From Tricharina praecox (lineage: Eukaryota), in contig NW_026250423.1 in NCBI RefSeq assembly GCF_024521635.1, positions 558,001-622,000 of the forward strand: a stretch of DNA of 64,000 nt, in the 5' to 3' direction. The notes beneath the pieces were generated by a model. That model did no database searches, was not told where the DNA came from, and was given only the letters and a program-made list of their open reading frames with translations. A program made the position numbers and the translations under genes. This document shows, in pieces, positions 9,501 to 58,222 of the stretch (position 1 is its first letter; each line of letters opens with the position of its first letter).

Positions 9501-10918
9501 TATGTATCACTCGGCGGTCACGATGATTCGGTTTCAAGCACATGGAAAAGACGGATCTCGGGGTTCATGAAATGTTTGGCCATCGTCTGTGTAAGATTAT
9601 AGATATATCCTATTCTTAACCTCACTCACTCCACCCCCCATCTTTCCCCGCTACTCTACTATCCAAATCTCTTTCCTCAACCCCACGCCTTTCTCTTTTG
9701 AAAGAAAGCCTAGCAGCAGATGAAAAAGAAAAGAAAAAGAGCACCGCCTGTCAGACCTCCATCGCCGCCCACCCTCGTCCCCACCGCACTCGAAAGCACA
9801 GTATACGGGAACTCAGGTTGAGATCATCACCCACCCGTCCCTAAGGACCGGCAAAACAGGCTTCACTCTGGGGCCGCGAGGAAATAGATCATCGTCCAGG
9901 TTGGAGATTCTGTGGCTCTTGTAAAGAGTTCAGATGAGACGATTTACTATAGAAATGATCCCTGATGTGGGGGTTAGTACTCTGTTTGGTGGTGGAGGCG
10001 CGGAAATGGAGGTGGCTGTTGGGGGGTACTCACTATGAAGTAAAATCGCATGAGGTTTGAAAGTTGGGGGAGAAAGGGACTTTTATACTTGGGCCGGCGC
10101 GGCTCAACTACCGGTGAAAATTTCGGTGCGGACTAGTGGCGGTGAAAATGTGCGGTGCGGCGCGGCTTGGCTTGGCTTCGGTTTGGCTTCGGTTTGGCTT
10201 CGGTTTGCCGTTACCCTTCACCACGAGCGCTACAAACAACGCCAGTAGCGTCTCGGTTTGATTCAATCCTTTGAGAGAGAGAAAACATCAATTGGAGAGA
10301 GCAAACATCAATTTGTTGTCGCATATGGCCTGTATAAATTATCTCAATCTTTTGCAAACCATGCTCCCGATTGGCGGTTGTCAGCGAGTGATACTGCATG
10401 CCGCAGCACACTGCTCTCCCCCGTCTCGGGCCGTCTGCATGTTACCACTGTTTTCCGCGGAGTCAAAACGCACTGCAGAAGTCTACATATTGCTCTTCCT
10501 CTCTTGTAGCTGGTTTGGAGCCGTCCCCTCATTGACGAAGATCCACGAGTGAGGACGTGTGAATCGCCCTACTTATAGAGTAAGTACCTACCAGGTCGCC
10601 GATTTTACGGACAGGGGAGATGCTAACAACCTAGGTATTAGGGTGGAAGGGCTGTGATGTTTTTCTCACGACGTGTGGAGCGAGTGGGAGAAGAGCAGTG
10701 AGCCCTGATACTTGCCCAGAAGACAATACGAAATTACGAATCTACGATGGACGGGGATCACAGTTTGGATGATGGAGAAGATCAATGTGGAGCACTTATT
10801 CAACCGTCGAAACCCAGTGACATTGTTATCCCAGCAGAACACTTGATCTATAGACGCATCAGGTGAACCCCAAATCGTTCGTGACATCCTCGGGAGTCGG
10901 GACGTATCAGATGAAAAC

Positions 10919-29977: not shown

Positions 29978-32900
29978 ATGGTGCAATTCATCAAACCTCG
30001 ATGGCTGACACATTCTTGTATGTTTCACGTGATTGCGCACCGCGCGTGTCGGGATGAACGCGAGAAGAAAGAAGTTCTGTAGAATGGGTTGAACTGACTC
30101 GACCCTATGTTCTAGCGCCGGACAAGAAAGCGTGCGAGGTCTATTCATTACACATATCTGCCGACGCGCAGAGATTAGCAACCGGAGGACTAGGTACCAA
30201 TCCTCGGCCCTCCAAACGTAACCGCAAGCTCGGTGATTGACAGACAGCTTTGAACGACAGATGGAACGGTACGCATCTGGTCGATGGAGGCTATCTTCGC
30301 CTCGCAGGGCGAGGAAGATGTCGAAATGCCGAAACAGCTATGCTCGCTGTCGCACCACTCGGGCGCGGTCCTCGCTGTGCGCTTCTCGGGCAACAACCGC
30401 TTCCTAGCTTCTGGCTCGGACGACAAGATCGTGCTGATCTACGAGCACGACAAGACGGCGGGAGCACGGCCGGTGTTTGGGAATGGCGAGTCGCAGACGG
30501 AGGTTTGGAGGACACATCGACGGCTTGCTGGGCATGAAAACGATGTGCAGGATCTGGGGTGGTCTGCGGATTCGTCGATCCTGGTGTCGGTCGGATTGGA
30601 CTCGAAGATCATTGTGTGGTCGGGCAGTACGTTTGAGCGGCTGAAGAGGATCGATGTGCATCAGTCACACGTCAAGGGCATCGCCTTTGATCCGGCGAAT
30701 AAGTACTTTGCGACTGCGAGCGACGATCGGACGGTCAAGGTACATAGGTACGCGTCGCCAGCAAGCAACGCGACAGCGAACGACCAGGCGGGGAACTTCT
30801 CGTTGGCAGTCTCGATTGAAGGGCCATTTCAGGATTCGCCGTTGACCACATACTTCCGGAGATGTTCGTGGTCGCCAGATGGAGCGCACATTGCAGCGTC
30901 CAACGCGGTCAATGGACCCGTGAGCTCGGTGGCTATCATTACACGTGGTAGCTGGGATAGCGAAATCAATCTCATCGGCCACGAAGGACCCGTCGAAGTG
31001 TGTGCATTTGCCCCACGGATGTTCACCAATACCGACCCAGAGACTGATCTACCGCCGACAGGTCCTGTCACAGTGATCGCGTGTGCTGGACAAGACAAGG
31101 CGTTGTCGATTTGGAATACTCTCAACTCAAGGCCCCTGATGATCATCCAGAATATAGCAGTGAAGGCGATCTCGGATCTAGCATGGTGTCCCGACGGCAA
31201 AAGCATGTTCGTTTCGTCTCTGGATGGTTGTATCCTCTGTGTTGCCTTCGATGAAGGCGATCTAGGATGGGTCTTACCCATTGAAGAGAATGAGCGTATC
31301 TTACAAAAGTTCGGTGCTGGAAGAAAGGGTGCCACCCTGCCCGAGGGTCCCGAGAGCTTGAAGCTGGAGGAAATGTCGAAGGCCGGCGAGAGGAGGGAGG
31401 TGGAAAGCAAAATGGGGGCGCTGATGATGGATGGACAGAACGGAGATGTCCCGATGGCTAATACCGGGGCTGCTGTAGGGCCGCAGTGGCAGGCGCAACT
31501 ACTTACTCCCGCAACCGCCGCTCCTGGAGAGCCCGTGGAGAAGGAGAAGCCATACAAACAGAAAGTTACCATCACCAAAGACGGCAAGAAGCGTGTTGCA
31601 CCTTTGCTGGTGTCAACAGGCGGCGGTCACCGTTCGAACCTTCCAAATGCACATCTGTTACAAGCTGCGGCAACCGGCTCGACAGCGAATCTTGACCCCA
31701 AGACGACATTGGATCTATCGCGTCCCTACGATGGTCTCCCTAAGGGTGGTATGGCGGCTCTGATAATCGGTAACAAGAGGAAACTTATAGAGGAGCCCGT
31801 CGATGAAGGGCAGCCACCACCGCCTACTACCAATAGCAAGCGGGTTTCAATAATTCAGCCATCGGACCAAAAGGCGCCAAAAGGGACTCCGGAATTCCTT
31901 AGGCCAGCAGTCGTCTGTCAAGCCCAGGCGGTATCACAAGTGCGCCTGGCTGTGCCCAAAATCAGATACACCGTTAGCCGAGTGATCGATGCGTCAGGCC
32001 ATCCTTCCAACAGCATCCCAGGTGTGACGGCGGCAGCATCAAGCACCAACACCGGCCCGGCACCGACAGACACGATCTTCGAAGCTAAGAACTCTCGAGA
32101 TCCCACGCGTCTGACAATATCGAAGGCCGGACAAATTCTATGGGTTGACTTTCTGCCAAAACCTGTAGTCCTAGTCACCGGCAACTCCAACTTCTGGGTT
32201 GCAGCATGCGAGGACGGCACCATCCACGTCTTTACCCCCGTTGGACGCCGCATGCTCAACGCAATAGTGATCGAAGCCATCCCATGCATCATCGACTGCC
32301 GCGGCTGGTGGCTCAGTTGCGTCTCCGCCGTCGGCGTAGCGCACGTCTGGAACCTCAAAACCGGCAAAGCCGCACACCCGCCTATCTCTCTCGCCCCCAT
32401 CCTCGACGTAGCTAACACCTACCTCAAATCCGACGGCGTCTCGCGCGCCGAAGCCATCCAAGAAGTGACCATCAACTCCAACGGTGTGCTGATCGTCTCT
32501 CTCACCGACGGCGACGGCTACGCCTACAACCGCGATCTCTGCAGCTGGCAAAAACTCAGCGAAAGCTGGTGGGCAGTCGGTAGCCAATACTGGGACACGT
32601 CGGGCTCCGTACGCCCCTCCGCGGCCACCACCGACTCCCTCAACGGCGAGCCGCCCCTCTCGATCGGAATCATCCCACACCTGGAGCGCCGCACAACAAC
32701 CGAAGTCCTCCTGCATCCACGCGGCCGCTTCCTGCAAAGGATCGTAAAGCAATGTCTCAGTCGAGAGGGCTTCGAGGGATTCGAAACCGCTGTGTCAATC
32801 GCCCACCTGGAGAATCGTATGGCCGCCGCCATCATGCTCGGCGCGAAAGATGAGTTCAAGAGCTACCTCATGACTTACGTCCGGAGGATCGCGAGCGAGG

Positions 32901-33198
32901 GGATGAGGGGGAAGGTTGAGGAGCTGCTGAGAGAGCTCATGGGACGGATGGATGTGGAGGAGGGCGAGGAGGATACAGAGGAAGAGGACACAATCTGTGG
33001 ATGCAGTAAGAGGGAGCTGCTGCAGAGTGTGCTCCTGGTTGTTGGTATGTTCTTCACTACGAGCCCCCCGTCACTCGACACTGCTGATACATTTGCACAG
33101 GCAAACACAGGGAACTCCAGCGCATCACGGTGCCGTACGCCAAAACGATTGGGACGCTGGATATGGAAGTTGACGAGGCGGCGGACGCGGAGCTGTAG
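29978..33198 (+). CDS. HIR1: HIR complex subunit Hir1/HIRA (WD40 + B motif + Hira domain)
   Basis: MVQFIKPRWLTHS exon, WD40 repeats, B motif 'QKVTITKDGKKRVAP', 'SIAHLENRM'. Introns near 30018-30115, 30193-30260 and 33045-33100. Real stop is TAG 33198. Confidence 0.95.
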
Positions 33199-34195
33199 GC
33201 GCCATCACCATCACCACTATCTATTACAATAGCTTTGTGTTTCTTACTGTAGACGGCTTTTACTTGTTCTCGGGGCGATCATCTGTTTTCACCTCTTCTG
33301 TCTGTCTGGGATTGCAACGGAGTGCTTTTTTGCTGCTTGTATCTGTGTTTATGTTTTGTTTTGGGGAACATTTTTCTCTTCTGTCTGACTATCAATCCAA
33401 CCCAACCCATCCCATCCCATCTCCAGTTCCCGTCCACCCACCCCAAGTATCCCCCTCCTCCTCCGATCATCAATCCAGATTATCCTACCTACCTTCCATC
33501 GCATACGAACTTCCCAATATCTTTGCATCAATATATACACCCACCATACAAACTTACAAAGTTGCAGTCCCAGTCGCAGTCCAGTCCCAGTTCCAGTCCC
33601 ATCCCAGTCCACCATCCCATCCCCCACCATCCCCCCCCCCAACCACCCCGGCAATCCTGAAACGCCTTACCAGCCCCTTCCCCCACACCCCTGCAAAGTC
33701 GTCGTAAGCTCCCACCCCGGGCCCCCCATGTCCCATGTCCCATGTCCCACCATGTCCCCCCACCACCCACCACCCACCACCCACCAAACAAACAAAACAA
33801 AACAAAAAAAGGGAATTCCAGTCCATTTTTTTTATACTTTCCTTCCCTTCCCTTCCCTTCCCTCCTGAGTAACACCGATAAAAATCACAGACAGAGACAG
33901 AGACAGAGATGAATCAAAAAAAAACCACATTGGAAGAGAAATAAAATCGATAAAAAAAAACCTGCCGTGGGCTTATTTGGTTGGTTTGGTTGGGCCTAGC
34001 TGAGTAGTAGTGGTGCTGAACACACAAACATGTAAAAATAAAAAAAATAAAAAAAAACACCGCCAAAGAATATCGCATGCAAACAGCAGAAGAAAAATGA
34101 AAACCCAGAACAAAGGAAACTCAAAAATCTAAAGAGCGTCCTATCCCTATCAACCCAACCCATACATCCCATCGTGATCTAAAGCGAAGAAGAAA

Positions 34196-39900: not shown

Positions 39901-41548
39901 AGGATTACGGACACATCTGTGGCTCAAACGAATTGACAATCGAATATGATAGTCGCTAGAGAAGTCTTGAGACGCAGTAATGTTTTCAGATGGGGCTGTC
40001 AGCAAAAGTGGCGGTGTCCGAACTTCGAGGGTCTCAAGTTTCAACATGTCCACTTTAGGCAAGAAGCAAAGGAATATATCCACATTATATTTCCCGCCAA
40101 GGCCGTGTCTAACTACCTACCTCCTGATCTCCAGGAGCGGTATCATACTATACATGTGGTCGTCGTCGGGACTCGGGAAGCAAGTGGGCGCGCGCGCGCG
40201 AGACCGATGGTATGTACCGGTAGATGCTTTATCGCCGACACGCAGAGACGGGTCACGGATGGCGTACCGACGACGACGATGGATTCGACCCCGATATCTA
40301 AACAATCAACTTGTTACCTACTCTATCGTACTCGACTTTGGAGTGGACTGAGCTCGCTTTCTCGGCCGAGCTCTCCGGCGATTCGCGAAACGGCGGATGC
40401 GGACGAAAAGTTGTATGTACTGTAACGTGTATGTACTATACGCCCCGGATCTCTGGGCTTGGGTTTCCCCATCTTCTTCCATGGTCGAGCGAGCAACTCA
40501 CTTCGTGATAATTACCTACCTGATACTTACCCCGCAGCAAGTAGGTATGATCATAGATACATATTCGATAACCAATTATCGATTGCGTCAGATCTGCGCT
40601 GGCCTGGCGAGCGCAACTGTACGCACGAATCGGGGGAAAGCTAAATCCACGAATGGGAGGGAGAAGGTGATGCTGCAACATTAACATTTTACGAATGGCT
40701 TGCATGTTGGTGTTGATTGACGGCTTGCATGCTGGAGGTACCAAGGTGATGGCCGTCATGGGTGGGTGGTATGTATTTGCGGATATGTACCGATGCTTTA
40801 CCGTATCATGCTAGTGGAGGTGGCGTTGTGGCTTGTGGAGGAACAGAGATTCAGAGAAGACCGTGCAGACTAGGTACTCCAGAGCGACTGTTGGGAACTT
40901 GGGATAGAGGGCTGAGGTACTCGTACATACAAACATATGCAACTAAGAGGGTGGACGGCCTGATGTTCCTCCGAGTGACGGGGCTGAGCCACGTCGGACG
41001 CGTCAGTAGAGCGGCATACCCAACATTTGGTCGCTTGGCGCTGACTTCGGTACGACGAGTGATGTACCGGTAGGTAGTACATACCTCATATCACGGAGAG
41101 TAACTATCATCAATTGAGAGTGCCTTCCGTTCGTGTGCCGCTGTGATTACTCCACGGAAGGTTTGAACACCCTGCGGATGTCACGGAGATCAATCCCAGT
41201 ACTAGTTGGGCATCGGTATATCTACATAGCCCCGCTTTATAGATAGACTACAACTCCTACTCCGGCGCCATTCGCTTTTCTGCTTCTTTCAAATACTATC
41301 TTTATCTCCCCATAGCCCCGCGAGCTAAAGATACACAGATCACTACCCGTCACTCACCATCACTCGGCTCTAGCGTTGACCGGGAGGCTGGAATAAATGA
41401 CGGTCGGGGGCTTTGACGGCGACGGGGGAGGCTAGAACCTTCTTTTACTGGACGACGGCCCCATATATCATTAGCAGTTCTCGTGGTCTCGTTTCCAGAT
41501 ACGACTGCCTCTAAGCCTTTCTTCTCTCTTATCCCATCCCATCATCTC

Positions 41549-42186
41549 ATGGAACCACCACCCGGCTCGCCCAACCCACTGTCCTCTTCGTCAGGAGTCC
41601 TTCATTCTCACAGCTCCGCACCGGCCCCGATCAATTCGCAGCCTCGTTGTAGGATTTGGTATGGACAAAACCTGCTCGGAACTGAGGATTCACTCGACCC
41701 TCGGCTTGTGAGCTACCTACCCAAACAGGGACGCAAATTGATGCTCCGCGGGAGGGTTGAATTTCGAAAGGCAAGTTACCTATACCCTTCAGCCAGTTGA
41801 TGGAGTCACGAAGTTTATCGGCAGTAGTGAAAATTTGCAGCAAAGTTCTCCGATGGATCCACAAAGCTGGCCCAAGTACGTACTTTTCGTACCAATCCAA
41901 CGGCACGTGCCACTCCACTCCACTCTGCTCCAATATGGCCTGCTTCAAGAGCCTGAGAAGACAGTACTATACCGGTGCATGGAAAGTCACTTTGCCACGA
42001 CCACGCATACGTTAATCCGGCGTACGTTCGATATGGATCTGAACATACAATCCAGTACCTACCACGAGTTTGTCGAGCTCTCATCGAAGAACGCTAATCT
42101 CCTAAATACCTACCATTTTGAGACCGCACGCAACGTCATCTCGTTTGTCCATCTTAACGACTCCAAACTTGAGGAACTGCTCTTAA
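41549..42186 (+). pseudogene. Lineage-specific ORF(s) interrupted at the 3' end by a MITE
   Basis: ORF 41757-42290 runs into the MITE. Its 3' part is duplicated in decayed form at 42660-42900. Confidence 0.4.
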
Positions 42187-42620
42187 GGCCCGTTTGGATG
42201 GCCTCAGTTTTAGCGAAAACTGTCAGTTTTTCAAGAAACCGAGCAAACAAAACTGTAACCCTGTTTGGATGGCACAAAAACTTTTTTTAAAAAAAACTGA
42301 AACTGTGCGGCTCCGGTGCCGGCGATGAAACGGGAACTGACCTCTGGAGGTCTTTTCTTCACCACCACTCAGTACCACATTTTAACTTCAACCATGGACT
42401 CCCTTTACGGGGAAGAGAAAAAACACAATTTGTCCACTATTAAAGTTCTGGTGAAGCCTATTTATTATTCAGACCTATGGCTGAGTATACTGAGAACTGC
42501 CAAACACTCTGTTCACCTCGCAGTTCTCCGGAAACTAAAACTGGGCAGTATTCGGTGTCCCGGCGGGGAACAATTTGGCTCTGAAACTGAAACTGAAAAC
42601 TGAGGCCATCCAAACGGGCC
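42187..42620. mobile_element. PIF/Harbinger (Tourist-like) MITE, 434 bp
   Basis: Perfect 25-bp TIR GGCCCGTTTGGATGGCCTCAGTTTT. Flanks are TAA on the left and AA on the right. Internal AAACTG repeats; no transposase. Confidence 0.88.
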
Positions 42621-43213
42621 AAGCATTATTAGTCCTGGCCCGAAGGATCAATTGATCTAAGCTGACCCGAGTGCATTATGTACTCTTCCAGTACCAATCC
42701 GACAGCACGTGCCACGAACCCTCCACTCTACTCCAACATGGCCTGCTTCAATTTTCTAGAGCCTGAAAAGACATTACTACCTGGAGTCACTCTGCCACGA
42801 CTGCGCATAACTACCTAACCCGGCGTACGTTTGATGTGGACCTGAACCTACATACCTAAGGTAGGTACCACGAGTTTGTCGAGCTCTTACTGAAGAACGC
42901 CAAAGCCTCCCCATGTCCAACCCTTATACTCCGCCGAGCTCTGTGGCTGCGCCACATCATGAACTGTGATTCGGAAACTCATAGATTCCGGTGGGGATGT
43001 ACATACTATTATCGTAGTGTGGCTTAACATGGCTTGAGCCTTGAAGTTTACTGCGACGGAACTAATATATACAGAGACAATGATGATCAGATTAATAGAA
43101 AGATTAGATGGATATTACACACCTACATAGGGTGTGCTCAGCACGGATGTGCCAAGTACTCTACTCGGATGCCAGGACGCTAGTTGGAGATTGTTCTTTT
43201 TTTCGGGGCTGAC

Positions 43214-43317
43214 AAGCTTCGGTGAAAAGTAAAGAGCTGCAGGGCTGAAAAGCTTCAGCCGGTGAGAAGAACTGCAGGGCTGAAAAGCTTCGGTCGGTGA
43301 GAAGAGCTGCAGGCTGA
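43214..43317. repeat. 33-bp tandem repeat (GCTGCAGGGCTGAAAAGCTTC...GGTGAGAAGA), about 3 copies
   Basis: Directly visible. Confidence 0.8.
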
Positions 43318-46300
43318 TTGGTAAGTATTCACCCTTTAATCATGTTTTCGACACCGACGGAACATGTTGGCCATTTTTGCTACAATAAAGGTCTACCAGC
43401 GAGCTTCTCAGCGGTGAGCCGCGTTACGATAGGTAGTACTAGAGTATATACTGGCTTTTACCACGAGGTGTTGCTTTCATGTCATATTTTCCTGAAGGAA
43501 CCGTAAGTACCAGAAGCCGCATCCACAATTGTAGTTAATGGTCTACTCTACTATCTATTCGATGATGGATTCAAGCCCTTGCTTGTCTTAACTGGACTAA
43601 ACCCGGCTGAGAACGAGAGGCGCTCCCTCACAGACTGAAGCTTCAAACTGTGCGTATAAATTTCCCTGGCCGGCGAAGAATCACGAACGATCAGGCTTGC
43701 CAAGAGACACTGGCCGTACTACTTCTTAGCGTCCCGGCATCCTAACTACCAGGCACATGTGACCCTGGGTCTCCGGTGCGAATAGCAGGTGTGTAGTAGA
43801 GTACGTAATAGTAGGTACAGAATCCAGATCGCGTCTGCCTACTACTAATTAACAAACACCATCATCAAAGTTTTAACCAATAGGTAGCTAATAGCTAAGC
43901 GTATAATATGCATCTTCCTTTACTCCTCACAGACGCCCAAAGTGATGGCACGTGCCGTTCATATGTATGCGGGGACTCCCGAGTCCCTGGCCCAACTCGG
44001 AGTCGTCCTTTCCTCCGCAGGCCGCTAAAAACAACTCGCAAATGATCTTTCTACACTATTGCCGCTGCCGCTGTTGATGGCAAGGAGGTTCGCGATTTCC
44101 TAGGGCAGTTGCTGGAGGCTGGAGGTCAACGAGTAGGAAATACGCTGGTTCCGGTAGTAGTGACTAGTCTGACTTGAGAAATCGTCTGAAGCTTGATAAG
44201 AGGAAGTCGAAGAGTGCGGGGAAGAAGCATGAGAATTACCTAGCAGGAGAAGGGAGGGTAGGAGGAGGAAGGGGAGGAGGAGGAGGAGGAGGAGAAAGAC
44301 GGTGCTACCGGAGGATATTGCGGATGATGTTGCTTCTACATATGGAGGAGGAGTATGATGATGGAGGCGATTGAAGCGACCACCACCGGGGTACATCTAC
44401 TGAACGATGGCGGTAGATCCATCGCTACATAGTGAGATATTATTAGCTATGTTCCGATCTCCTCATCATCGTGCTGTTACTCCTCACACTATGTACTCTA
44501 CAGGAAGCCATGACCGCAGACTGCCAGACACACCTCGTGTTCCGTAGTTCCGTGTCCCCCGACTAAGATACCTACATAAGGACATACGTTCGCCATCATA
44601 CGACGAGCGGGGAAGTGAATGCGACTTCGACTTCGATCTCAGCTCGCACAGCATTGCATATGGACTGTAAGTTGGGCCCGTAGTGATACGGTGATACGGT
44701 GATACCTGATGCGCTGGGTACCCGATACCTCGGCCTTTGTTGCCTCGAATCGCCTTGATCGCCATGTCATACAGCCTACAGCCTACAGGCGCCCAACTCA
44801 CGCGTCAGCGCTCGGCCGATGGAGGCGAGTAAGCCGGGCGACGGACGACGGACGTCCAACTTTCGAGTTCTTCATCGTTTCTTCTTGATGATTCAAGCGA
44901 CTCTCGGTACTCTATGCTGGAAAAGGACAGGTAGGAAGAGGCCGGTCCGAAGGGAAGGGAAAGAATTCGGTGTCTCCTGATGGCAGGCCCGGGGAGGCAA
45001 CAAGTATAGTGGAGATGGCCGATGGCGAATGGGAGGTACTTAGAGTGGCCAGGTCTCGAGCTAAACGGGACTTTAGGATTACTATAGTTACAGCTGCAGT
45101 TCTAATAGGTGACAGAAACTTTCTATGGATGATCTAGATAAATGGATAGTAAGGTAGGTATTGAATAGTGAGTGTCCTACTAGGGTGCTTTGACGGGGGT
45201 TAATATTATTTTGACAGTTGTCTACCTATTATCGCGATTCATGACTGCTCGGGCATGCGATTGGTGGTGGGATTATAGTACAATACACTGGAGCTCGAGA
45301 AGGGAGAATAGATGGGGAAGTGGGTAAGTAAATGTAACTACTGCATAACCCCCACCACGCCTCTAGATCTCTCTTCTCTTCCTAGGGAATCTTCACCTTT
45401 ATACCCCCTCACCCTATAGTACCGCTTGGCTGCTGCCTACCGGAGTAGTTAATCACAACCTCTCACCTACTGGTACTCCCACGCATGCGTCTCGGCAACA
45501 TCAGTACGGATCGGTGAAGATCGGTGAACGTTACACACCGACCGAATGGATTACGTTTTCCGGTCCTTTCAATTCCGCTCGGCCAGCCGGTGTATCCACT
45601 ACATACCGTACCGGTACCGCTTTTTCCACCTCTAAACCGCCCACCCTCCACCGGCGATCGGCGGTATCCCGGGTGGGCCCGTGGGGGCTCGAGTTATTCC
45701 GAGTAACAGCTAGCCTTACCGACGACCGTACTATACACAACTATACACAACTAAACACACCGCGTGCTGTTCAATTATACATTCTTATGTATGCAGTGAT
45801 CCCGCCTGTCGACTGCTGCCTGTTATATGTACGATTGCTGCCTGCTGCCTGCTGCCTGCGTGGGTGGGGGTGTAGTAACTATAGTAACTAGCCCTATCGG
45901 CTGCAAGGAAGTGCAACGTCAACGCCAAAGTCAAGGCGTTGAACGGTGAACATTCCCTCGTGTTCACCATGCCCAGTGCACACAGGCATAGGTGTTTGTA
46001 CTCTACCATAATTGCATCTGCCTCTGCCTGAGCCTGGGCCTGAGACGACTACCTCACCATGGAGGACGATATCCGGTTCACGATACCCACTTCTGTGGGT
46101 TCGACTAACGTCAGAGTTGTCTGATTATGCCGTGGTGGTGGTGATATCGTGGTATTTGTTTTGAGGTATCAAAATTATCGGCTGCTACATAACTAATCAA
46201 GTAACCCAGCAGGTAAGTAGGTATGTAGACCAACATCATCACCGGGCCAGCAGCCAGCTGGGTTACCTGGCCTAGTTACCAAACGCTCGTCTGCCTCTAT

Positions 46301-46747
46301 ACCATGTAGCATATCGGCTTACCCGTTATAGTATCCGCTGGTGTTGGCCGTCTATCAAATGTACTACTCAGCCCGCAGGGCTGAGTAAGAGTATCGTGGG
46401 TGGTGAGTGGTGCGTGGGGGAAAACCACACCAGCGGGAAATGAAAGGAATCACGATGCGTACCGAACAGCTCACCATTGGGGGTTGATACCTACACCGGT
46501 ACCGCTTGGCAGAGCCGGCGGCGAGTGGCGGCGGTGGTGGTGGCTGGGAGACACGGGAGGGGAGGCGGGAGGGAGGGGGAGGGAATGGATATATGGATCC
46601 CATTGAGTCCCCGGATTGACGATTTTTTGATCACCAGCAGACAATTGGCACCCTAATCAGACCTTTAAATTCTAATCATCCATCCTCGCCCTTCCTCCAC
46701 TTCAATCCCCCCTCCCCCCCACACACAAACCCAACAAGATAACAAGA

Positions 46748-47547
46748 ATGCACCTCCGCCCCGCGCACCGCCGCGACATCCCCGCGATCTCGTTGCTATG
46801 CACGCAAGCCTTCGCGACAGAGCCACTCTTCACAGCACGCCACCCCTACCGACAACAGCACGCCGACGACTTCCGCCGGGCCTTCTCGCGCTCGCTGCAC
46901 ACGCACCTGCTGTCGCGCAACACGCTGATCCTCGTCGTCGAGGCCGTCGGCCAGGTCGTCGGTGTGGCCGTGTGGATTGCTGATGGCACCACCGGGCCGT
47001 GGTTGGAGATGAATACCGGGTGCGGGATCTTGACTGGTTTGTATCCCCTCCCCATACTGTGGGGATATGGCTGACTGAGGGTGTAGATCTCGAGCGCTAC
47101 TTCCTTCACCTCACGACGCCACTGCAGCCAACAGACCGCAGCATGTCACCCGCAGTATCCTCCGAGCTGACCCGCGCGTTCACCGCGCTGTCGACGCTGG
47201 TGCCAGCGCGACGCCTGCACCTTGCGCTGCTGGGGGTGCACCCGGAGTGGCAGCGGCGCGGGGTGGGAAGGCTGATGGTCGAGGAGGGCATGCGGATTGC
47301 GGCCGAGGAGGGCGTCCCCGTAATGCTCGAGGCCACTGGGAGTCCTGACAGGTCCGGGTTGTATAGGAAACTCGGCTGGAGGGATGTGGGTGAGCTCGTC
47401 CTGGAGCAGGCGAAGCATAGGGGCCCTGTGATGCGGTGGGATCCGCCGATAGTGGAGGGGATGGAGAGGAAAGAGAGGGAGAAGGGGGAGAAGGGGGAGA
47501 AAAGGGAGAAGGAGGTGTGGGATCTGTTTGGTGCCGTTGTCGTGTAA
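46748..47547 (+). CDS. GNAT-family N-acetyltransferase
   Basis: MHLRPA start; motif A 'LALLGVHPEWQRRGVGRLMV'; motif B 'LEAT...LYRKLGW'. Intron 47037-47086. Confidence 0.9.
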
Positions 47548-47790
47548 TGGCTGGATTGAGGGTTGGGTGTTGGAGATGGGGTATGGCGTATATGTGCTGG
47601 TTATTTGGTCCTGGGCGGAACTTGGAAGGAAACTGGGAAGGAGAAGGAGAAGGAACAGGAGGAACAGGTTTGGGATCTATTTGGTGCGGTTGTTGTGTAA
47701 TAGCTGAATTTCGGGTTGAGATTTGGAGCTGGGGTATGGCGTATATATGCTGGTTATTTGGTCCTGTGGGGAACTTGGGAAGGAGGACGA
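47505..47790. repeat. Tandem duplication of about 153 bp covering the GNAT stop codon and 3' UTR
   Basis: GGGATCT(G/A)TTTGGTGC...GGGGTATGGCGTATAT..GCTGGTTATTTGGTCCTG occurs twice. Confidence 0.85.
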
Positions 47791-48521
47791 GGAGGACGAG
47801 GAGGAACAGGCGTTATTCTGATTCATTATATTTGACTTGAGCTCTACACGAGAATTTCTGTTTTTCTTTTTCTTTTGCTGCATTTCCCATTAGCAAATAC
47901 ATAGTGCTGGGTGTTAAATACCTACTACATACATTCATTTCCTTACCTACGGCATTGTGGATGCGACCCTATGGACCATAGTAGCAGCAATCCCCATGAT
48001 CCCATCAATCTCCATCAATCTCCATCACTCGCACGCACAAGGATTCACGGGGACCGCCTCCACCAAAAACGAAGTATATCAACCTCGTGGGAAACTCACA
48101 TGCCCCTACAATGTATTCGACCTCTGTACATATCCTACCTCCTTTGTAGATCACGGCATATAGTACGCATCTAGTCCACTCTAGACCTAGAGTTCGGCAC
48201 AGTGCAACCAGCTGCCCTCTAAGTTCTCTCTCTCCACACTTGGGTACATAGTTAATCACTCGCCAACTTACCGTAGATAGTGAAGAGGATAAAATGTACG
48301 CCGCCGCAGTCCCCCCCTTCATCTCTTCAAGATCAAATACTACATACATTGTGATGGTGCTGCTGCTGCTAGAGACGTGCGAACAGCACTCTCGGCTTCT
48401 CCATGTTATTTTTTATTTTTTGCTATGATATGACATGACATGACGCCGTAAGGCCTAGTTAAGCCCTATGTGGTAGCGGCGAGAACCCGACGAGGCTACT
48501 AGTGTCCCTCCAACAGCTATG

Positions 48522-48528
48522 TATAAAA
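48522..48528 (+). promoter_or_regulatory. TATA box upstream of the U2 snRNA gene
   Basis: TATAAAA about 40 nt upstream of the predicted U2 5' end, followed by a pyrimidine tract. Confidence 0.7.
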
Positions 48529-48567
48529 GGCTCTTCTCCCTCCTTCCCCTCCGCTTCTTTTCTCTTC

Positions 48568-48858
48568 AGCTCTCTTTGGTATGTCATCCCCACCCCAAGT
48601 CCAACATCCAACATTCAACATTCAACACCATCGAATATCCACAGTCCACTAACAATCCCCCCTCTACATACACACAGCCTTTTGGCTTAGATCAAGTGTA
48701 GTATCTGTTCTTTTCAGTTTTAATATCTGAGAACCGATCACATAGTATCGGTGTTAATATTAATCTTGTTTTTGGATCCTGGGAGCTGCTGGCCACTGTG
48801 CTTACGCATGCTGGCTCCTAACTGTGTCACTGGTATTACACTGCATCCAGGTGATGCG
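48568..48858 (+). ncRNA. U2: U2 spliceosomal snRNA, split by a 99-nt spliceosomal intron (48579-48677)
   Basis: Spliced 5' end AGCTCTCTTTG|CCTTTTGGCTTAGATCAAGTGTAGTATCTGTTCTTTTCAGTTTAATATCTGA matches the fungal U2 consensus. Branch-recognition GTAGTA at 48698-48703; stem IIb ACCGAT/ATCGGT; Sm region ATTAATCTTGTTTTTGG; stems III and IV follow. Mature length about 190 nt; exact ends approximate. Confidence 0.95.
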
Positions 48859-49193
48859 AATATTCATCCAGTCTGCGTCTGCGCTTCATTGTCGCTCTGG
48901 ATGTATGCGAGAGCACGAGGAAAGATTGCGGCCGTTGGCGGTGAATGGCACGTGCGCATGTCATGTTCCGACTCTTGCCCTTTGGCACATAGTTTATCAC
49001 TCGTCCCGGACTGTTTATCTAGCGTCTTCTGGCTGTCTTCCCCCCCGATCGGCGAGGAGCCGGTTTGTATCTGCCTTAGGTAATCCAAGAATGTCGAACT
49101 GCAATGATGATTAACCAAGCAAGTGTATTAATCCCCCATAACCTCCCATAATCCCTCATGGCCCCCATAATCCCCCATAACCCCCCCATAACT

Positions 49194-49230
<37 letters not shown>

Positions 49231-50143
49231 AGCCCTCTGTACATTTACATAAATCTCCTCTCCTCGCCTCCTGCATACATCTACCTACACAATATACGCC
49301 TATAACCCATAACCCACATCTCATAACCCATGACTCATGCCACACAAATATCAAACAACATATGCAAAGAAAGAAACACGAGAAAACCCCAATGCAAAGA
49401 AATATCATACGAGAAAGCCCAATGCAAACTTCAAAGTGGTAAAGGAAATTATAAAAAACACAACCATAAACATGAACATGAACATAAACATGAACCTTCA
49501 CCCGGTCCCATCACCCAGTTCTCAAAAATCAAAACCAGTCCTAGAAACCAACCCAAGAACCAACCCAAAAACGACCAAAAACGAGCCAAAACCCAACCCA
49601 AAAACCCAAAAACGACCCCCCACCATAGTAGAAAGCTGAAACACCCTTATTAAAACCCATACATGGACTTTTACACAAGAAGCAGTCTCCGTGCGTGCTC
49701 TCGTAACCGGGACGAAGGAGAAAAAGGAAACACAAAAGGAAACGGGAAGTGGAAGGGGAAGGAAGACAAAGCGTGGTAGCATCCAACATAGGTACATACA
49801 GGTCGTATTGATATACAAAATGAAAATGGAAAAAATGGAAATGGAAAAATCAAAACCGTCCTGTCCCGTCCCAGAAGAAAAGAAAAGAAGAAAAGAAAAG
49901 AAAACCCGCCAGTCCAAACAAGACAGATGACAGGGAGAAATAAAAGAAACCCCAAAAAGCCGACTACATCCTTGGTATCGTGACACGCTCCGCCGGAAAT
50001 CGAAAGGAAGAAAGGAAGAAAGGAAGAAAGGAAGAAAGGAAGGAAGGAAGGAAGCGAATGCAATATTGTGACGGGTATATGCAGGGGTACGTTATGTTGT
50101 TCCGGAGTCCAGAAATCATGGGAGGCCTCCTGTGTACTTCCTA

Positions 50144-52621
50144 TCAGCATTGAACATCCGCGAAACCTTCCTCTGGTACAGTGCATAACATACATGTGAG
50201 GTAGCTGTAGTTCATCCACTGCTCGGTATCCAACCCATCGTTGCCACCAAAAGTGTTCGCATCCGGCTGCTGCATCTGGGAGGGAGTTGGTTGTTGTTGT
50301 TGTTGCTGTGGTTGCTGTTGCTGCTGCTGCTGAGGAACCGGTTGCATCGGCCACTGCTGCTCAAACGGTTTCTGGTTGCTGTCGTTGTTGTTGGGGCGCA
50401 TGTATAGTGGGGTGTATCCTCCTAGGGGCGGAGGGTTCAGACTGCCGTACGACGAGCTGCGCGTCGTCAGGGACTTGTCGTTCGTGAGGGCGGGAGTGCC
50501 GCCGGCTGTAGCAGGTGCGCTGATTTGCGCTCCCGAAGTGACCATATCCGTGTACGAAGGGAATCCATAACTGGGTGTGTTGGAGACTGTGATGTGTTAG
50601 CAGTGTATAAAGGGAGGAGGTGGTGGTGGTTGTCGAGGACTCACCAGCACCGCTGGAACGCCGTCTCTCTCGTTTGTCCAGTTCCTTCTCGGCCGATGCG
50701 GCTATGCTGTCGAGTACCCGTCGTAGGTGCTCTTTACATGATGCTCGTGTGGGCGAGGATGAGGCGCTGAAATTGAGGTTCTCAACGTGCGGGACTAGAA
50801 CATTATTGACGAATTCCATGAACTGATCACTAGTGTCAACCCTGGGGCCGCAGTAGCCTGGGATGCGGGCCGCCGGGAGTAGGCCTGCGGCGCTAGGATA
50901 TCCTGACGGAATGCTGTCGGCGAAGGTGATGCTGGGAGGAGCGCTGGGAGGAGCGCTGGGTCCGGCTCCGGCTCCGGCTCTGACTCCGAGTTCGGCTCCG
51001 AGTCCGGCTCCGTAGATGCTGGTGCGCGGGAGAAGAGAGGTGGGAGAGACCGGAACACTGTTGGTCTCTTGCCTGACTGCGAGGCCTTGATAGGTGCGGC
51101 CTGGGGGTTTTATGGTTAGCAAGCGATGCCACACAGAATCCTTGACTACAGGCTACTAACCATCACTTCCCCGTGGCTCATCGAGCTCCTCGACGCTCTT
51201 CGCCTGACAAATCTTGACGATTCGCTCGTACGAGATGGCGCGCTCGCTCAGCATTTTCAGCTGCTTGGCAGCGAGACCATCGTTGGTCTGGTCTTTATAC
51301 TGCTTTGGGTCCTCATTCGGGTGTTTGTTCTCCCTGTGTCGTTTAATCTGGTGTTTATCCCCCTTGCGCATTTCGCAGGAATCGCACATGTATGGCCATA
51401 GATGCTTTCGACGCAAGTGTTCCCTTTTCGAAGTGATCAGCCATCGCTATCTTAGTACATAGCATCGGGGAGGGGGAGGGGGGGAGGGGGGGTTGTGGAA
51501 CCCACTTGAGACGATTGGATTCAAAGAGATTGGTGTCCCTGGTGCCATCGCAGCCGGGCCACGGGCACGGGTTTTTGCTGTCACCAGTACTGGCGGTCGA
51601 TCCGTTGCGACCTGGAGGGGACGCTGGTCCCTTACCCTTCGCGGACACGGGTGATGCCGTCTCGGGCGACGCCGGCAGGGAAGCAACCTGTCCATTGGTT
51701 GGGGAGCCTCTGCTGATAACGGCAGCAGACAGATCATTGACGGTGGAAACTGTTCTCTTGTAGCGATCCTCGTGGATCCCGCGTAGCGTGGCCGAGCGAT
51801 CGAGTTGATTCAAGTCGTGGATGGGGCCTTCTACGTAGGCGTGGTGTGGGGGAGGCGTTATGGATGGACTTCCTAGAATATGGGCTCTGGATGTTGTCGT
51901 GGCGTGTTCGTTCCAGTCATTGGGTGGATATGCCTCTACGTTGGTGTTTATATAGGGCACGGTGATATTGTGGGTTGCAAAGGCGGACACGGGATGCGAT
52001 GCGATCGGCGCGCTGTCCAACAGCATGGGAGTTGAAAACATAGAATCACCGAGTTGCTGTTGTTGCTGCACATTGTATTGCTGGATAGTATTGTTCGTCT
52101 CGTAGTAGTCGATAGGATCGGTAGGATAGCTACTCTGGCCGGCATGTATCTGGGAATCCAATACCGACAATTGGGCGTTCGACGGATCTTGTTGTTGTTG
52201 TAGTTGCGAGCTTGTTGGGTAGGGCGGATGGTAGTCGGTGCACGAAGGTCTACATACCTCAGGATTTAGCATTGCCGGAACGAACAGCATCCGATCGTAG
52301 GCCGTGGAGGGGGAGGGGACAATACAGTACATACCTCTGTTCGTGAGCATTAACCCTAGGTTCAAAGCTCCTCGGACTGGTCGACGACGCCCTGCCCAGC
52401 ACCTTCTCCACCGTCTTCGAGACCATCATCTTGGCTCTCTTTCCCGGCCCTGGCCCTGAAGAATGGCCGGACGAATGCGCCCTCGACCCGATGTTCGAAC
52501 TCATCCTCCGTTTGAGATTCGTAAAATCGTCGTGCAGCGCCTTCCGCGCTCCTCGTATGTTGTTCCGTACATCTCGTAGGCTCGATCTCGTGTCCGAGCG
52601 CCGTGGTGGGGTGGCAGACAT
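50144..52621 (-). CDS. C2H2 zinc-finger protein (two fingers) with Q-rich regions, putative transcription factor
   Basis: Five-exon model read by eye joins CPWPGC...NRLK|EHLRRKH and PYMCDSC...IKRHRENKH. The last exon is the Q-rich ORF ending at 50144. Start could be 52714. Confidence 0.72.
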
Positions 52622-54279
52622 AGTAGAAGGTAAGGATAGTAGGTAGCTTGGTAGGTATAGCCTCGTCTTCGTGGTCGCAGCGGTGGAGGGCCTAGGCAGG
52701 AGTGGGGTTGCCAATGGCCGAAGGTAGGTAACAGAACGGAAAGGTGACGGGAGTCCTCAGGTTCTCCCCCGAGAGATAAGTATGTTCTGCTAGGCGCCCG
52801 AACAGCTAAAGCTAAGCTCCTCCACTTCGCGTACCGGACAAGTCGGATGGTGGTGTTTAAGTAAGAAAGTAAGTTGATCTTAAGGTAAGATAGTGGTGAA
52901 TGCCGGCAGGTGGTAGCAAGCTGCTGTGTAACTAATTCTCCATCAAAAGGAACGCTGTCTATACTATGGTGGTGTATGTACACACTCTCTCCCGGATGAA
53001 CCTGGAGCTAGCTACTATATAGATAGCACGGAGCCCTGAGGTCGGTCGAAGAGGTATATACCAGGTGATGGAGAGTACTGTCCCGTGTGGTCGTGTCGTG
53101 TCGTGTCGTCGCAGTGCTGTTCGTGAAGAGAAAACAAGAATGGTCCTCTCAATTGCGCGGGCATCGTGCTGTAAAATAGGTAGAGGCAGAATGTGTGCGC
53201 GCGCAACTCTGCCGGAGGCCCCAGGGTGTTGTTCTGGGGGTTCAAGGATTGTGTCCACCCACCTACCCATCCACACTCGATCCACCTCCGTCCAGCCACC
53301 ATCCACTCATTCATCCCTCCCATCCATTCCCCCATCCGCTGCCCCATCCATTCCCCCATCCGCCGCCCCGTCCACCGCCCCATCCACCCCTCCACCCATT
53401 CATCCCAGCTGGCCAAACCTCCCCCCCTCCACATCGTACCTTACCCCCCTCCCACCATCCCGCGCCCATCCCAGGCCCGCACCCCCTCCCACCCAACCCA
53501 TTCCTGCAAGCAACCATGAAACTTCTGTGCGTTCATCCCGACAGGCCCGCTGCGATTTTGACGTCGGTTGTCCCCTTCCTAACTACTGTTCCTAGCTTGA
53601 GCAACTACGGTATGTAACAAGTACCATCGCGCTTGGTGGCGCCCAGGCTGAGTTTAAAGCGGCGGCTGTGGGAAAAGCTGGTGGAACGCACCACCCGGGA
53701 GTGGCGCGGCATGCAGGATGGATGGTCCGTCTCATTTGAAGCCACGACGTGGTGAAAGATAACCTACCTGAGTAAGAACTAGTTCGAGGATGGGGCTTCT
53801 TCATACACAGGTACATAGTACAGACACATCACATCGTAATTGAAGCTCCGCGGACGTCATGTCCTGCTGCTCCATAGCAACTCCCTACCTACCCGTGGCG
53901 GTGAGTTTGGAGAAGAACTGCTCCCCGCACTTCTTGACGTCAGGTCCTATGGCTTCAGCCTCTCTCAAGATTTCGGTGAGAAGACGGCCGCCAACTTCCC
54001 CGCCGCGGGGAAGGCGTAGCTACGGTAGTTGCCTATCGACGATAGTAGCCATGGCGCCAATACGGGTTTCGCCAGCGGATTACGGCTGGTTCGAGACTCT
54101 GACGATCCATCCTGAATCATTCTTTCGAATCCACCGACCCGGTTCTTCGGGGTCCCTGTTGATGGATATTCCGTCTGCGCTTCTGGAGTGGGTTGGCCCA
54201 CGCCAACTGCACTCTGTAACCCAACCACTCTACTATACTCTACTCTGATGAGGTTAGCGTGCAGCTGCCTCCCACAGGG

Positions 54280-54380
54280 CCACCACCACCACTCACCACC
54301 ACCACTACCACCACCACCACCACTACCACCACCATTATTACCACCACCACCATTATTACCACCATCACCAGCATTACCAC
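54280..54380. repeat. (CCA)n-rich microsatellite
   Basis: Directly visible. Confidence 0.85.
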
Positions 54381-55268
54381 TTGTGTACGACCACTCCACC
54401 ACACAAAACCCACGCAGGCAGGCAGACTGTGCAAGTGAGCGATGCCGCCTTGTCCGCCCATGTCGAGATGCGTGCATCGCACATAACACATCGCATACCT
54501 ATCGTGCATCAGAAATCGAAATCTAAATCTAAACCTAAAGCAAGCACGGAGATTGGTTTCTTCCCCATCTTCTCCTCCGGGAATCTGGGTATCTGGGTAT
54601 CTGGGTATGCACGCATCAATGGATTCTGGCAGAATGCGAGAGTTAGGTACGGAAAGACAGCCAGAAAGAGGCCCGGAAAGAGAGCTGGGAAGAGAGTCCT
54701 ATCTCGGAAAGGCCCAAAGGCGGGCGAACGCAAGAGCGCGCCGAAATTAGTACCTATCGTACATTACCGTACACAGTAATGGCAGTGGTATTATCCGATA
54801 CCGAGGCTCGCTGCTCGCTGCTGGAGATCTTCCCTCCAGGCCCCCGCCAGCGACTGCCAGCGGCTGTCGTAATCCGCTCGTAATCCGGATTGTCCTGTGA
54901 CGAAACATTCGCTTCCTGTCGCGTGAGTTAACCCGTCGGCGACGAACAATCCGAATCGCTAACCAACACACTCAGAAGCCAGCGGGGACAGTTATGGAAG
55001 CGCAGCATCTGTGTATCGGCTTGCATGCATCAAGGTGGTGGTGGGGGGCTGAAACGGCCGGCATGCCAAAAGTGTCGGTCGCATCATGCAGCCATTCATT
55101 CAACATTACCCTCCATACTCTGCATTCTGCACGATCCTGTACCGACCCGTGGGGCTGTACAGTCACAAGTGTACCGTATTACCGTACCGTACCGAATCTC
55201 TTGCAACTTTCAACTTCAGACTTTCATCTTTCATCTTTCAAGGCGCATGCGCATGCGATTGCGATTGC

Positions 55269-55745
55269 TAATCGAGCCGGAGTTTGAATAATCGGACCGT
55301 CATGCTTCGCATGGCCGCGACTACACCTGAGTAAGCAAGCAGTGCTCTATGTAGAGTAACCACAGCTCGTCTACCGACCCGAGTCGGCAGAAAGTGTACC
55401 CGGAAGATCGTCGCTGGTGCTGGATGTCTTGACGCTTGACGCTTGACTGTTGACTTGACTTCGCCTCGCTGCCACGCTGGCTTGGCCTGGTTCGGCGCCG
55501 GCTTGTGTGGAGTATGTAATCGAGCCGGAGTTTGAATAATCGGGCCGTCATGCTTCGCATGGCCGCACCTACACCTGAGTAAGCAAGCAGTACTCTACTC
55601 TGGAGTAACCACAGCTCGTCTACCTACCCGACTCGGCAGGAAGTGTACCCGGAAGATCGTCGCTGGTTGTCTTGAACTCTTGACGCTTGACGCTTGATTG
55701 TTGACTTCGCCTCGCTGGCTTGGCCCCGCCGGCTTGTGTGGAGGT
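55269..55745. repeat. Tandem duplication of about 249 bp
   Basis: AATCGAGCCGGAGTTTGAATAATCGG...CTACACCTGAGTAAGCAAGCAGT...GTGTACCCGGAAGATCGTCGCTGG starts at about 55270 and again at about 55519. Confidence 0.9.
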
Positions 55746-56676
55746 GTGGAGGTGTTCGCCCCACCTTAAACCATGAACCACGAACCCTACTCTTTACATA
55801 GCCGTAGCGGTCGGCTCGCACAGACGGTTTCGGCTGCGGTACCCAGGAAAGCTCGAACCACTTGTTTACTTATGTAAGTGCTCGGCGAGTATCCTACAGA
55901 GATGCTAGTTGGTTACATAACTACCTTTCTACTAGAAGGGAGTCAAGGGACCAGTTAGATGGGGCGGGCCGAGGGCTGAGGAATGTGGGTGGACAAGAGC
56001 TTCAGCGCCAAGTGCAAACGCCCGGCACCTGTCCAGTCCAGCACAGCCCAGCAAAGCCGGTACGCACACACCCACCTTACAGACCACCCATACCACGGGG
56101 TAAATGTCCAAGAACTCGCCTCACCCAATCGCTTATAATCTAGCATCTGGAAGTTAGAAAACTTCAGCTCTCTGAGCTCTCCCATGCCGAGTTCTCCGTT
56201 AGTGTCCAGAAGCCAGACACCGTCACGCCGGTGCAGATCCTTCAAGGTTTTCCGCTCAACTCCACTGCGCCCACGAACAAATACGTGGTGTATGTACTCT
56301 ACTAGGTGGTACCGTGTCGTCTCCGTATCCACCGACTGGTCACGGCCACTAAGTGGAAATGTTTTTCTCAACACGCCGCCCCCCACCTGTCACAGTGTCA
56401 CTTCACCGCCCGGAACGCCAATTAAGACATTCATGCGTGGCTACTCGCTAGAGTACCCCAAGTTGCCAAGTAATCGCTTGCTTACTTACATCCTACCACA
56501 TGTCACCCCAAGTTCTCTTCACAAACGGAACGGGACGAGACAAAAATGGTGCCTGGCTGTGGGCTTGGATGACGGGTCGGTGGTTACCATACCGCACCGT
56601 ACCGTACCGTACTGTAAGGCATCGTTCGCCAGGAGCACTACTACTATTAGTATGTAACTACAGGTGGGTAACATGC

Positions 56677-58222
56677 CCCTAGGGTACAAGGAATGCGGCA
56701 AGCCGCATTTAAGTAAATGCGAGCCTGCTTGTAAACTGGCTTTGACACAAAATGCGGCTCATTTGCTCTGATAATTTAGGCTTCTGCTAGTAAATTGGCC
56801 CAAGTCGAGTCAATAGGCGTTTGGCAATAATTGCGGCCAGTTTACAATAGTCAAATTGGGCTCTTATGCCTAATTTGGCTGTCGATACTCAACCCACCAA
56901 CGTTTATTCCTAACATTGATGCCCACTACTACCTAAGGCCTAGTTTGGGTGTCAACTACACATTGTCGACTGAGCCACAGTACAAATAAACTCTACGGAC
57001 AACCACTAGTAGCAGGTACATGCCAGCACCCCCCCGTAGTCAACCCCGCCATAGTCAACCCCACCATAGTCCCTCTTCATTCCGCCTACGATGTCCGACA
57101 CCAGCCACGTTCTACGGTTCTTTGATTGTTTCCACCGAGTCGAGCTACGGCACGGGCGGGTGGAGAGACAGGTGGGTAGAGGCAACTAGTGTGTAGGTGA
57201 TGATGTTGGGCTGATGTCAAGTGGTATGGTGAGACGACTATGCGGCCGACTAAGAGATCCCTCGCCGCCACCGCACCACCTATGCCCGCACCACAAGCCA
57301 GCCTTCTTCAGCCGGCTGGTGGCCGGTAGCCCAGAAGTAAAACAGAGTTTACAACAGGACACGCTGTGATAACGAGCTTAAATAATCGACTCTTGGTGCC
57401 GAGACAACAGCAAAACCTAGCCACGGTGGCCCCACCGCCGCCGGTGCTTCAATACTCCTCTCGCTAACAGCTCCTCCTCTCCTCCTCTCGCTCACAGCTT
57501 CTGCTCTCCTCCTCTCTCTGACAGTTCTTCCTCCTCTCACGAACATCTCCTCCTTCACTTTCTCCTCTCGCCGATAGCGCCCCCTCTCGCAGCCCCTCCC
57601 CTCGCCGATAGCTGTTCTCGCTCCTCTTCTTGCTAACAGCTCATCCGCTTACTAACAGCTCCTCATCTCGCTCCTTATTTCTCCAACAACTCCTCTGACT
57701 CCTCCTCTCGCTTCCACCGGTCGTCGATAGCTCCTCCATCACCGTCGTTCACTCCCTCGGTCTCTGGTCTTCCTACAGCAAGTACGTATTGCGCTCCTAG
57801 ACCTAGCTTGCTGCGGATACCTCACTGCCATCGCCAGTACTAACAGACTGTCTATTCAGCCCGCCGGTCATGTTGAATGTGTGCTAAGATGTCAGTGAAT
57901 GCCGGCGAGCGGGGGAGGCTGAAGAGCAGGGTGGAGGCTGAAGAGCGGGAAAAGCTGGGGGAGATATATGTGTATATATTGGGCGAGCAGCAGTAACTAG
58001 AACCTAAAATAAATATATTATCAACGCCAGCTGAGCAACTGTGCCCTTATAGCCATAGAGCCGTAATAGAGCCATAGGGCTGTAATAGAGACAAGGGCCG
58101 TAATAGAGATGAGGGCCGTAATAGCGCCGTAATAGAGCCGTAATAGAGCCCTAAGAGTGGCCGGATTAGACACGCGCCCTTTTACTGTAATTGCGACTTG
58201 TCCGATTCCTTGTACCCTAGGG
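56677..58222. mobile_element. Non-autonomous DNA transposon, 1546 bp, 18-bp TIR, 4-bp TSD
   Basis: CCCTAGGGTACAAGGAAT at 56677 and its exact reverse complement ending at 58222. ATGC on both flanks (56673-56676 and 58223-58226). Subterminal GCCGTAATAGAG repeats. Confidence 0.85.

Follow-up and report, generated by a model that had tools for sequence, protein, structure and literature searches.

An 11-nucleotide first exon and a probable spliceosomal intron at the 5' end of a Pezizales U2 snRNA gene

The window, which denotes the whole 64,000-nt (64 kb) stretch of DNA analysed here, contains one U2 snRNA gene, and it is most probable (about 0.88) that this is a working Pezizales U2 gene in which a mini-exon of 11 nt supplies the 5' end. 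The putative exon 1 (AGCTCTCTTTG, 48568..48578, plus strand), which was recognised as the start of mature U2 by its sequence, profile coverage, conservation and fit to stem I, is followed by a 99-nt spliceosomal GT-AG intron (48579..48677, plus strand), assigned from its splice signals and from same-site introns in relatives. Exon 2, the U2 body of about 189 nt (48678..48866, plus strand), begins with CCTTTTGGCTTAGATC and is matched by the Rfam model RF00004. In the DNA the conserved U2 5' segment is interrupted, and it becomes contiguous with stem I only once 48579-48677 are removed. Judged from these features, the U2 encoded here most likely requires splicing before it can function.

The intron carries the 5' splice site GTATGT (48579-48584, plus strand), the branch site CACTAAC (48647-48653, plus strand) with its A at 48652, which precedes the 3' splice site by 25 nt, and the 3' splice site CAG (48675-48677, plus strand), which lies within a CACAG ending at 48677 and followed by CC. 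The first AG 3' of the branch site is the one at 48676-48677, with none in between. It thus shows a GTRNGT-like 5' splice site, a CTRAY branch motif 10-45 nt from its end and a first AG in the form YAG, as is typical of a U2-type intron. The original prediction had named the TATA box, exon 1, GTATGT, CACTAAC, CACAG and the start of the U2 core, all of which were found at the positions given when checked against the sequence. Its placement of the intron inside stem I is accurate as well, the intron lying between the first and the second base of the upper helix, and its central claim of a U2 gene with a canonical intron between positions 11 and 12 is supported by splicing in silico, by relatives, by the promoter and by the U2 body. 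To stem I, exon 1 contributes the lower helix's 5' half together with the initial base of the upper helix, and it also provides the strand of helix II. Exon 2 holds the loop and 3' strand of stem I, the helix I region, the branchpoint-interacting stem-loop with the branch-site recognition sequence GTAGTA (GUAGUA in RNA, 48698-48703, plus strand), stem IIa, the T-rich Sm site (about 48767-48775, plus strand) and stems III and IV. From work in yeast and human, we take U2 positions 1-11 to be the strand of U2/U6 helix II and the GCU seven nt further 3' to be that of helix Ib.

RF00004 matches the window's U2 gene at 48666-48866 (plus strand) over model positions 1-192; the score, 106.2 bits, exceeds the gathering score of 46. 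To accommodate model positions 1-11 this alignment must draw on the intron, and two stem I pairs become non-canonical. The 15-mer spanning exon 1 and the 5' splice site occurs only once in the window and was absent from all of 100 dinucleotide-preserving shuffles. A permissive Rfam scan of 40000-58000 yielded nothing besides U2, and ARAGORN, run on the whole window, detected no other RNA near the locus.

For in-silico splicing an nhmmer profile was built from 24 unique intronless ascomycete-type U2 genes of the metagenome scan described below. Against this profile the genomic U2 scored 118.2 bits and covered positions 11-190, and after excision of 48579-48677 the score rose to 131.7 bits (+13.5) with positions 1-190 covered. 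The spliced form had been predicted to score higher and to reach the 5' end, and removal of exactly this segment to restore the latter; both expectations were borne out, with profile position 1 reached and stem I complete. Five of six excisions shifted by 1-3 nt scored below the unshifted one. The sixth, shifted by -1, leads to an identical product because of a G at both ends, but its termini are not GT-AG. Folding of the initial 27 nt of the spliced RNA gives a stem I with both helices (-7.7 kcal/mol), and the unspliced equivalent forms the upper hairpin only (-5.4 kcal/mol), the lower helix being lost.

Related U2 loci were collected by scanning metagenomes for an exact 35-nt pattern taken where exon 2 begins; with 400 nt of flank retained on either side, this returned at least 116 loci. 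The resulting 119 rows comprise the listed loci, second copies in two loci and the window; the loci lie on metagenome contigs and were typed by their U2 sequence. When the rows were classed by the sequence preceding CCTTTTGG, 47 among the matches listed showed a 5' end of the form ...CACTCTGG or ...CACTCGGG, presumably basidiomycete-type, 40 a contiguous ascomycete-type 5' end, 27 (window included) other 5' ends, and five had less than 40 nt upstream. A stricter search for split 5' ends was then run on those 112 rows that have 100 nt or more of upstream sequence, demanding a GT...AG segment of 40-250 nt with a branch motif 8-45 nt from its 3' end. Among the matches listed, the exact 11-mer was contiguous with exon 2 in 32 of these 112 rows, 21 rows including the window had exactly one split solution each, and 59 had other 5' ends. 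Shuffled upstream regions gave a split solution in only 2 of 4200 cases, and none of the 76 intronless or basidiomycete-type rows among the matches listed carried AGCTCTCTTTG followed by GT elsewhere upstream.

The original prediction had proposed a survey of related U2 loci for the same intron position, and this position was indeed found in at least nine metagenome loci. Among the matches listed, 10 of the 21 split rows have the intron at 11/12, namely the window and L040, L062, L063, L064, L070, L082, L113, L110 and L114. In the nine loci the introns measure 51-66 nt, start with GTAHGT and carry CTAAC or CTAAT 12-19 nt before a YAG; with the window included, the same-site introns start with GTAAGT, GTACGT or GTATGT and have the branch site 12-25 nt from their end. 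Conservation was determined for nine same-position rows (36 pairs), L082 being omitted on account of an exon 2 identical to that of L070. Mean pairwise identity amounted to 100% in exon 1, 79% in exon 2, 63% in the upstream 80 nt and 62% in the intron, falling to 52% in the intron interior. L062, L063 and L064 are tandem U2 genes on one 17.5 kb contig, and their introns (66, 51 and 63 nt) differ in length and sequence, which indicates that the splice signals have been kept independently in the paralogues.

With 99 nt versus 51-66 nt the intron of the window is longer than those of its relatives because it contains a 7-nt TCCAACA repeat in four copies (48600..48627, plus strand; period 7, 4.0 copies, 95% matches). 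In an alignment of nine rows this stretch is an insertion private to the window. The long intron of L059 shows a similar expansion of a short, CAAATCACC-like repeat. Small tandem repeats seem to be the way in which these U2 introns grow.

Upstream of exon 1 we located a CTAGYG-type box, ACTAGTGTCC (48498..48507, plus strand), 69 nt 5' of the first base of the exon, and the TATA box TATAAAAG (48522..48529, plus strand), 46 nt 5' of it. Among the ascomycete-type rows of the matches listed, a TATA-like box, where found, lies 37-59 nt 5' of mature position 1 in intronless and intron-bearing genes alike. A [AC]TAG[CT]G box 45-130 nt 5' of position 1 was seen in 23 of 53 such rows among the matches listed, with or without an intron; in these rows the CTAGYG box mostly lies 56-72 nt upstream, the value for the window being 69 nt. 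The U2 boxes are thus spaced relative to exon 1 and not to exon 2, which suggests that transcription starts at exon 1 and that the intron is inside the transcript. The CTAGYG box probably functions as a promoter element.

In our proposed course of events RNA polymerase II would initiate at A48568 or close to it, about 46 nt 3' of the TATA box, giving a precursor that consists of exon 1 (48568-48578), the 99-nt intron and the U2 body of about 189 nt. The spliceosome would then excise 48579-48677 by means of GUAUGU, CACUAAC with A48652 and the first downstream AG, that of CAG. Joining of G11 to C12 would generate the conserved U2 5' end, complete stem I and yield a mature U2 of about 200 nt. Since exon 1 would be supplied by splicing, mature U2 from this gene would need spliceosomes that already hold U2. 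Going by the sequence features, this U2 gene is presumably expressed and its transcript spliced in vivo. A word search of sequencing runs returned 23 runs, each with at most 0.05 of the 41 locus words, a result that bears neither on expression nor on habitat; these matches are most simply explained by the conserved U2 core common to many fungi.

The lineage of the window was deduced from one of its protein-coding genes. Pfam identified three housekeeping genes of ordinary kind, for a GCFC-domain protein (991-2361, plus strand), an Abhydrolase_2 esterase (5005-6204, minus strand) and a HIRA/HIR1 histone chaperone (30254-33232, plus strand, with a 992-aa open reading frame at 30254-33229; Hira domain and CAF1B/HIR1 beta-propeller). 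Among named species, the identity of the latter was highest with Sphaerosporella brunnea (72%), followed by Pyronema omphalodes (69%), Geopyxis carbonaria (67%), Rhizina undulata (66%), Orbilia oligospora (56%) and Neurospora crassa (51%). As the HIRA protein is nearest to that of Sphaerosporella (Pyronemataceae, Pezizales, Pezizomycetes), the lineage of the window is assigned to the Pezizales.

Introns at the 5' end of U2 were found well beyond position 11/12. In total 21 of the 53 rows with a canonical ascomycete-type 5' end, among the matches listed, have an intron somewhere in their first 11 nt, and six positions are represented. Besides 11/12 these are 5/6 (L028), 6/7 (L006, L019, L074, L083, L115), 7/8 (L004, L029, L050), 9/10 (L030) and 10/11 (L036), and the introns at these five other positions each restore the same 11-mer. 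L059 and L020 resemble split loci and both end at a contig edge. The 6/7 and 7/8 classes frequently have one of the unusual 5' splice sites GTCAGT, GTCCGT or GTTCGT, the first being common to both. Furthermore, seven GT-AG introns further 3' were read by eye among the matches listed, at 51/52 (L084, L092, L110), 54/55 (L031, L068) and 63/64 (L087 and L102, the latter ending at a contig edge), all of them within the branchpoint-interacting stem-loop or next to it. Two introns, at 11/12 and at 51/52, are present in L110, where exon 2 belongs to the other main type. Apparently, this abundance of U2 introns in ascomycete-type loci has not been described previously.

A maximum-likelihood tree was calculated from 54 exon-2 rows, omitting basidiomycete-type rows, rows with less than 185 nt downstream, rows with a differing downstream part or a second intron, and L107 for its long branch. 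It is short and rough, with 28 of 49 inner branches drawn open. Split rows are scattered among intronless ones, and sister rows with different intron positions occur (L004/L059 with support 100/99, L050/L083 with 92/89). The clade into which the window falls is starred (97/92). Its eight rows each have the 11/12 intron, with no intronless row among them, and its label denotes one side of a branch present in 88% of the bootstrap trees. L114 takes no clear position in the exon-2 tree.

The staggered positions make it less likely that 11/12 is special, and they point either to repeated insertion or to an old intron that was retained and shifted. The latter reading, a serious rival to the reverse-splicing origin suggested in the original prediction, concerns the origin of the intron only and is compatible with a working split gene: an old U2 intron of the Pezizomycotina would have been retained and have slid by 1-6 nt in each lineage, instead of having been reverse-spliced into the core. 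We rate the chance of such a history as appreciable, though somewhat below even. It is favoured by the six staggered positions from 5/6 to 11/12 in 20 listed loci amid intronless relatives, by the two sister pairs that differ in position, by the GTCAGT common to the 6/7 and 7/8 classes and by the presence of 11/12 also in L110 with its different exon 2. Reverse-transcript-mediated intron loss, moreover, tends to spare 5'-terminal introns. On the other hand, no alignment is apparent to the eye between introns of different position classes, the U2 tree is short with most of the counted inner branches open, and the introns at 51/52, 54/55 and 63/64 fit repeated insertion at least as well.

As a further alternative, the window's gene might be a silent or decaying copy, the cell being supplied by an intronless U2 elsewhere and the split being tolerated rather than used. 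Twenty metagenome loci were scored with Rfam, including eight of the nine same-position loci (L082 was not among them), and all of them are U2 above the gathering score, with 105.6-160.5 bits. The 106.2 bits of the window are the second-lowest of these 21 values, 19 of the 20 metagenome loci scoring higher, and its end branch in the tree is long (0.23 versus a median of 0.074). Taken together, score and branch make relaxed constraint on the window's U2 conceivable, and fungi often have several U2 genes, as the three in tandem on one contig illustrate. However, exon 1 is 100% identical and the splice signals are intact in relatives whose intron bodies have diverged, which speaks for purifying selection on splicing. 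The U2 clade of the window is also devoid of intronless rows, and its promoter boxes are intact. All U2 stems are retained as well: the consensus structure of exon 2, derived from an alignment of 12 sequences (the window, seven same-position and four intronless loci), comprises 39 pairs, 14 of them with compensatory changes. No decay is visible in the window's copy, and a silent gene is accordingly regarded as improbable.

Even less credible, to the point that it was rejected, is a gene that has no intron and starts near 48667 with a divergent, unpaired U2 5' end, the upstream 11-mer being a coincidence or a promoter remnant: RF00004 does align its full model to the unspliced DNA, but at the price of the stem I defects described above and with the TATA and CTAGYG boxes displaced to about 145 and 170 nt upstream, against 37-59 and mostly 56-72 nt elsewhere, and neither the uniqueness of the junction 15-mer in the window and its absence from the shuffles, nor the conservation of exon 1 and the splice signals in nine relatives, nor the lack of AGCTCTCTTTG plus GT in 76 intronless or basidiomycete-type loci would be expected of it. 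A chance match to splice signals was dismissed; 2 of 4200 shuffles gave a split solution, versus one in each of the 21 split rows. A snoRNA-host arrangement was likewise discarded, and the Rfam scan detected no known RNA family inside the intron.

For the working split gene, the weight of the case lies in the restored 5' end and its conservation. Its first exon of 11 nt is very short, and matches to splice signals alone are weak evidence. Fungal splice signals are described as low in information in the available part of PMC4408805.

The window harbours a second split small RNA gene, that of the U3 snoRNA (9746-10051, minus strand), which Rfam detects as Fungi_U3 with 118.8 bits at 9746-9978. 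Its exon 1 of about 18 nt ends at 10034 (minus strand) and is followed by a 72-nt intron (10033-9962, minus strand) with GTGAGT, TACTAAC and CAG, which is the known fungal U3 intron type. As with U2, Rfam puts the U3 5' end wrongly on the intron tail. Given a U3 gene of U2-like architecture in the same window, such a gene layout is, by analogy, evidently processed in this organism. Both genes share an ACTAGT box (U3, 10131-10137, minus strand; U2, 48498-48504, plus strand) and an identical TATA element, GTATAAAAG (10080-10087, minus strand, in U3). The ACTAGT/CTAGCG-type box looks like a candidate snRNA promoter element of the Pezizomycotina. In most of the U2 5' introns C is strikingly abundant and G scarce over the first 10-30 nt past the 5' splice site (CCCACCCC-like tracts), and the same kind of tract occurs in the U3 intron of the window (10027-9985, minus strand). 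It could reflect local strand composition or a need to stay unpaired.

Introns in snRNA genes are rare, and for a long time they have been referred to as possible traces of reverse-splicing events at the spliceosome's active site. The intron described here, a spliceosomal one inside the mature region of a U-snRNA between G11 and C12, belongs to the class of mRNA-type snRNA introns associated with Tani, Ohshima and Takahashi, its position and its lineage both being new. The nearest counterpart, the U2 intron of Rhodotorula hasegawae, is reportedly a single one of 60 bp just 3' of the branch-site recognition sequence. In both cases a canonical intron lies within a conserved functional region of a polymerase II-type gene, which would make splicing necessary. 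Unlike in Rhodotorula hasegawae, however, the intron of the window is at 11/12 behind an 11-nt exon 1, and it occurs not in a basidiomycetous yeast but in a filamentous ascomycete, where the split is common to a clade of loci. The original prediction had named the Rhodotorula U2 intron, which agrees with the citation of an mRNA-type intron (Takahashi et al. 1993) in the available text of PMC5855946. According to the same part of that paper, spliceosomal introns are also present in several fungal U6 genes, with further cases in the U1 and U5 genes of Rhodotorula hasegawae (Takahashi 1996), and what determines intron insertion into snRNAs is unclear.

In analogy to fungal U6 introns, which occur at many positions and in a lineage-specific manner, the intron of the window is a spliceosomal one in a snRNA of the catalytic core. 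U6 introns have been taken as hints of reverse splicing. Unlike U6, the gene of the window is a U2 gene with a TATA promoter and its intron lies at the extreme 5' end. U6 introns are documented for Schizosaccharomyces pombe (Tani and Ohshima 1989) and in a survey by Canzler et al. 2016, both as cited in the accessible sections of PMC5855946 and PMC5832005. The vast majority of analysed Pezizomycotina have U3 introns (Canzler et al. 2017, PMC5832005), and the Neurospora U3 genes are described in PMC2780460, each as far as the available text of these papers goes. Like a fungal U3 gene, the U2 gene of the window appears to be transcribed on its own, encodes a small RNA and combines a very short exon 1 with a short 5'-proximal GT-AG intron. 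In the accessible part of the survey PMC5832005 (2017), U3 and U6 are the sole small structured RNAs said to be interrupted frequently, and U2 is absent there.

A literature search, which covered few of the subscription papers, found a U2 intron reported for no filamentous ascomycete, a provisional result. The U2 passages available from PMC2377427, PMC2780460 and PMC4408805 contain no such intron in a filamentous ascomycete. In the available text of Jochl 2008 the Aspergillus U2 'could only be partially aligned', and an intron is unmentioned. The sole example of a U2 intron in the accessible literature, as far as its available portions extend, is that of one basidiomycete yeast. To this example the present analysis would add a conserved, clade-wide U2 intron of the Pezizales and, from other ascomycete-type loci, many more U2 introns whose 5' positions are staggered.

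There is about an even chance that three points hold jointly: that U2 is, after U3 and U6, the third small RNA often split in filamentous ascomycetes, that every U2 copy in the window's own Pezizales lineage carries the 11/12 intron, and that the cluster of sites reflects either a hot spot of reverse splicing on the helix II strand of U2 or a clear case of sliding in a gene without a reading frame. If every copy were split, the biogenesis of U2 would obligatorily depend on pre-existing U2, which raises the question how cells manage a U2 supply that depends on U2. The staggered U2 introns furthermore constitute a natural data set for weighing reverse splicing against sliding or retention. For annotation, it is of consequence that covariance models place the U2 5' end wrongly in such genomes.

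Finally, the second matches in L033 and L056 consist of the promoter-proximal region and the first ~53 nt of U2, arranged divergently to a complete U2 gene. They run into unrelated sequence with a conserved GC-rich hairpin, GGAGGACC TTCG GCCCTCC, and these partial copies may be duplicates that were truncated, or else chimeric genes for small RNAs.
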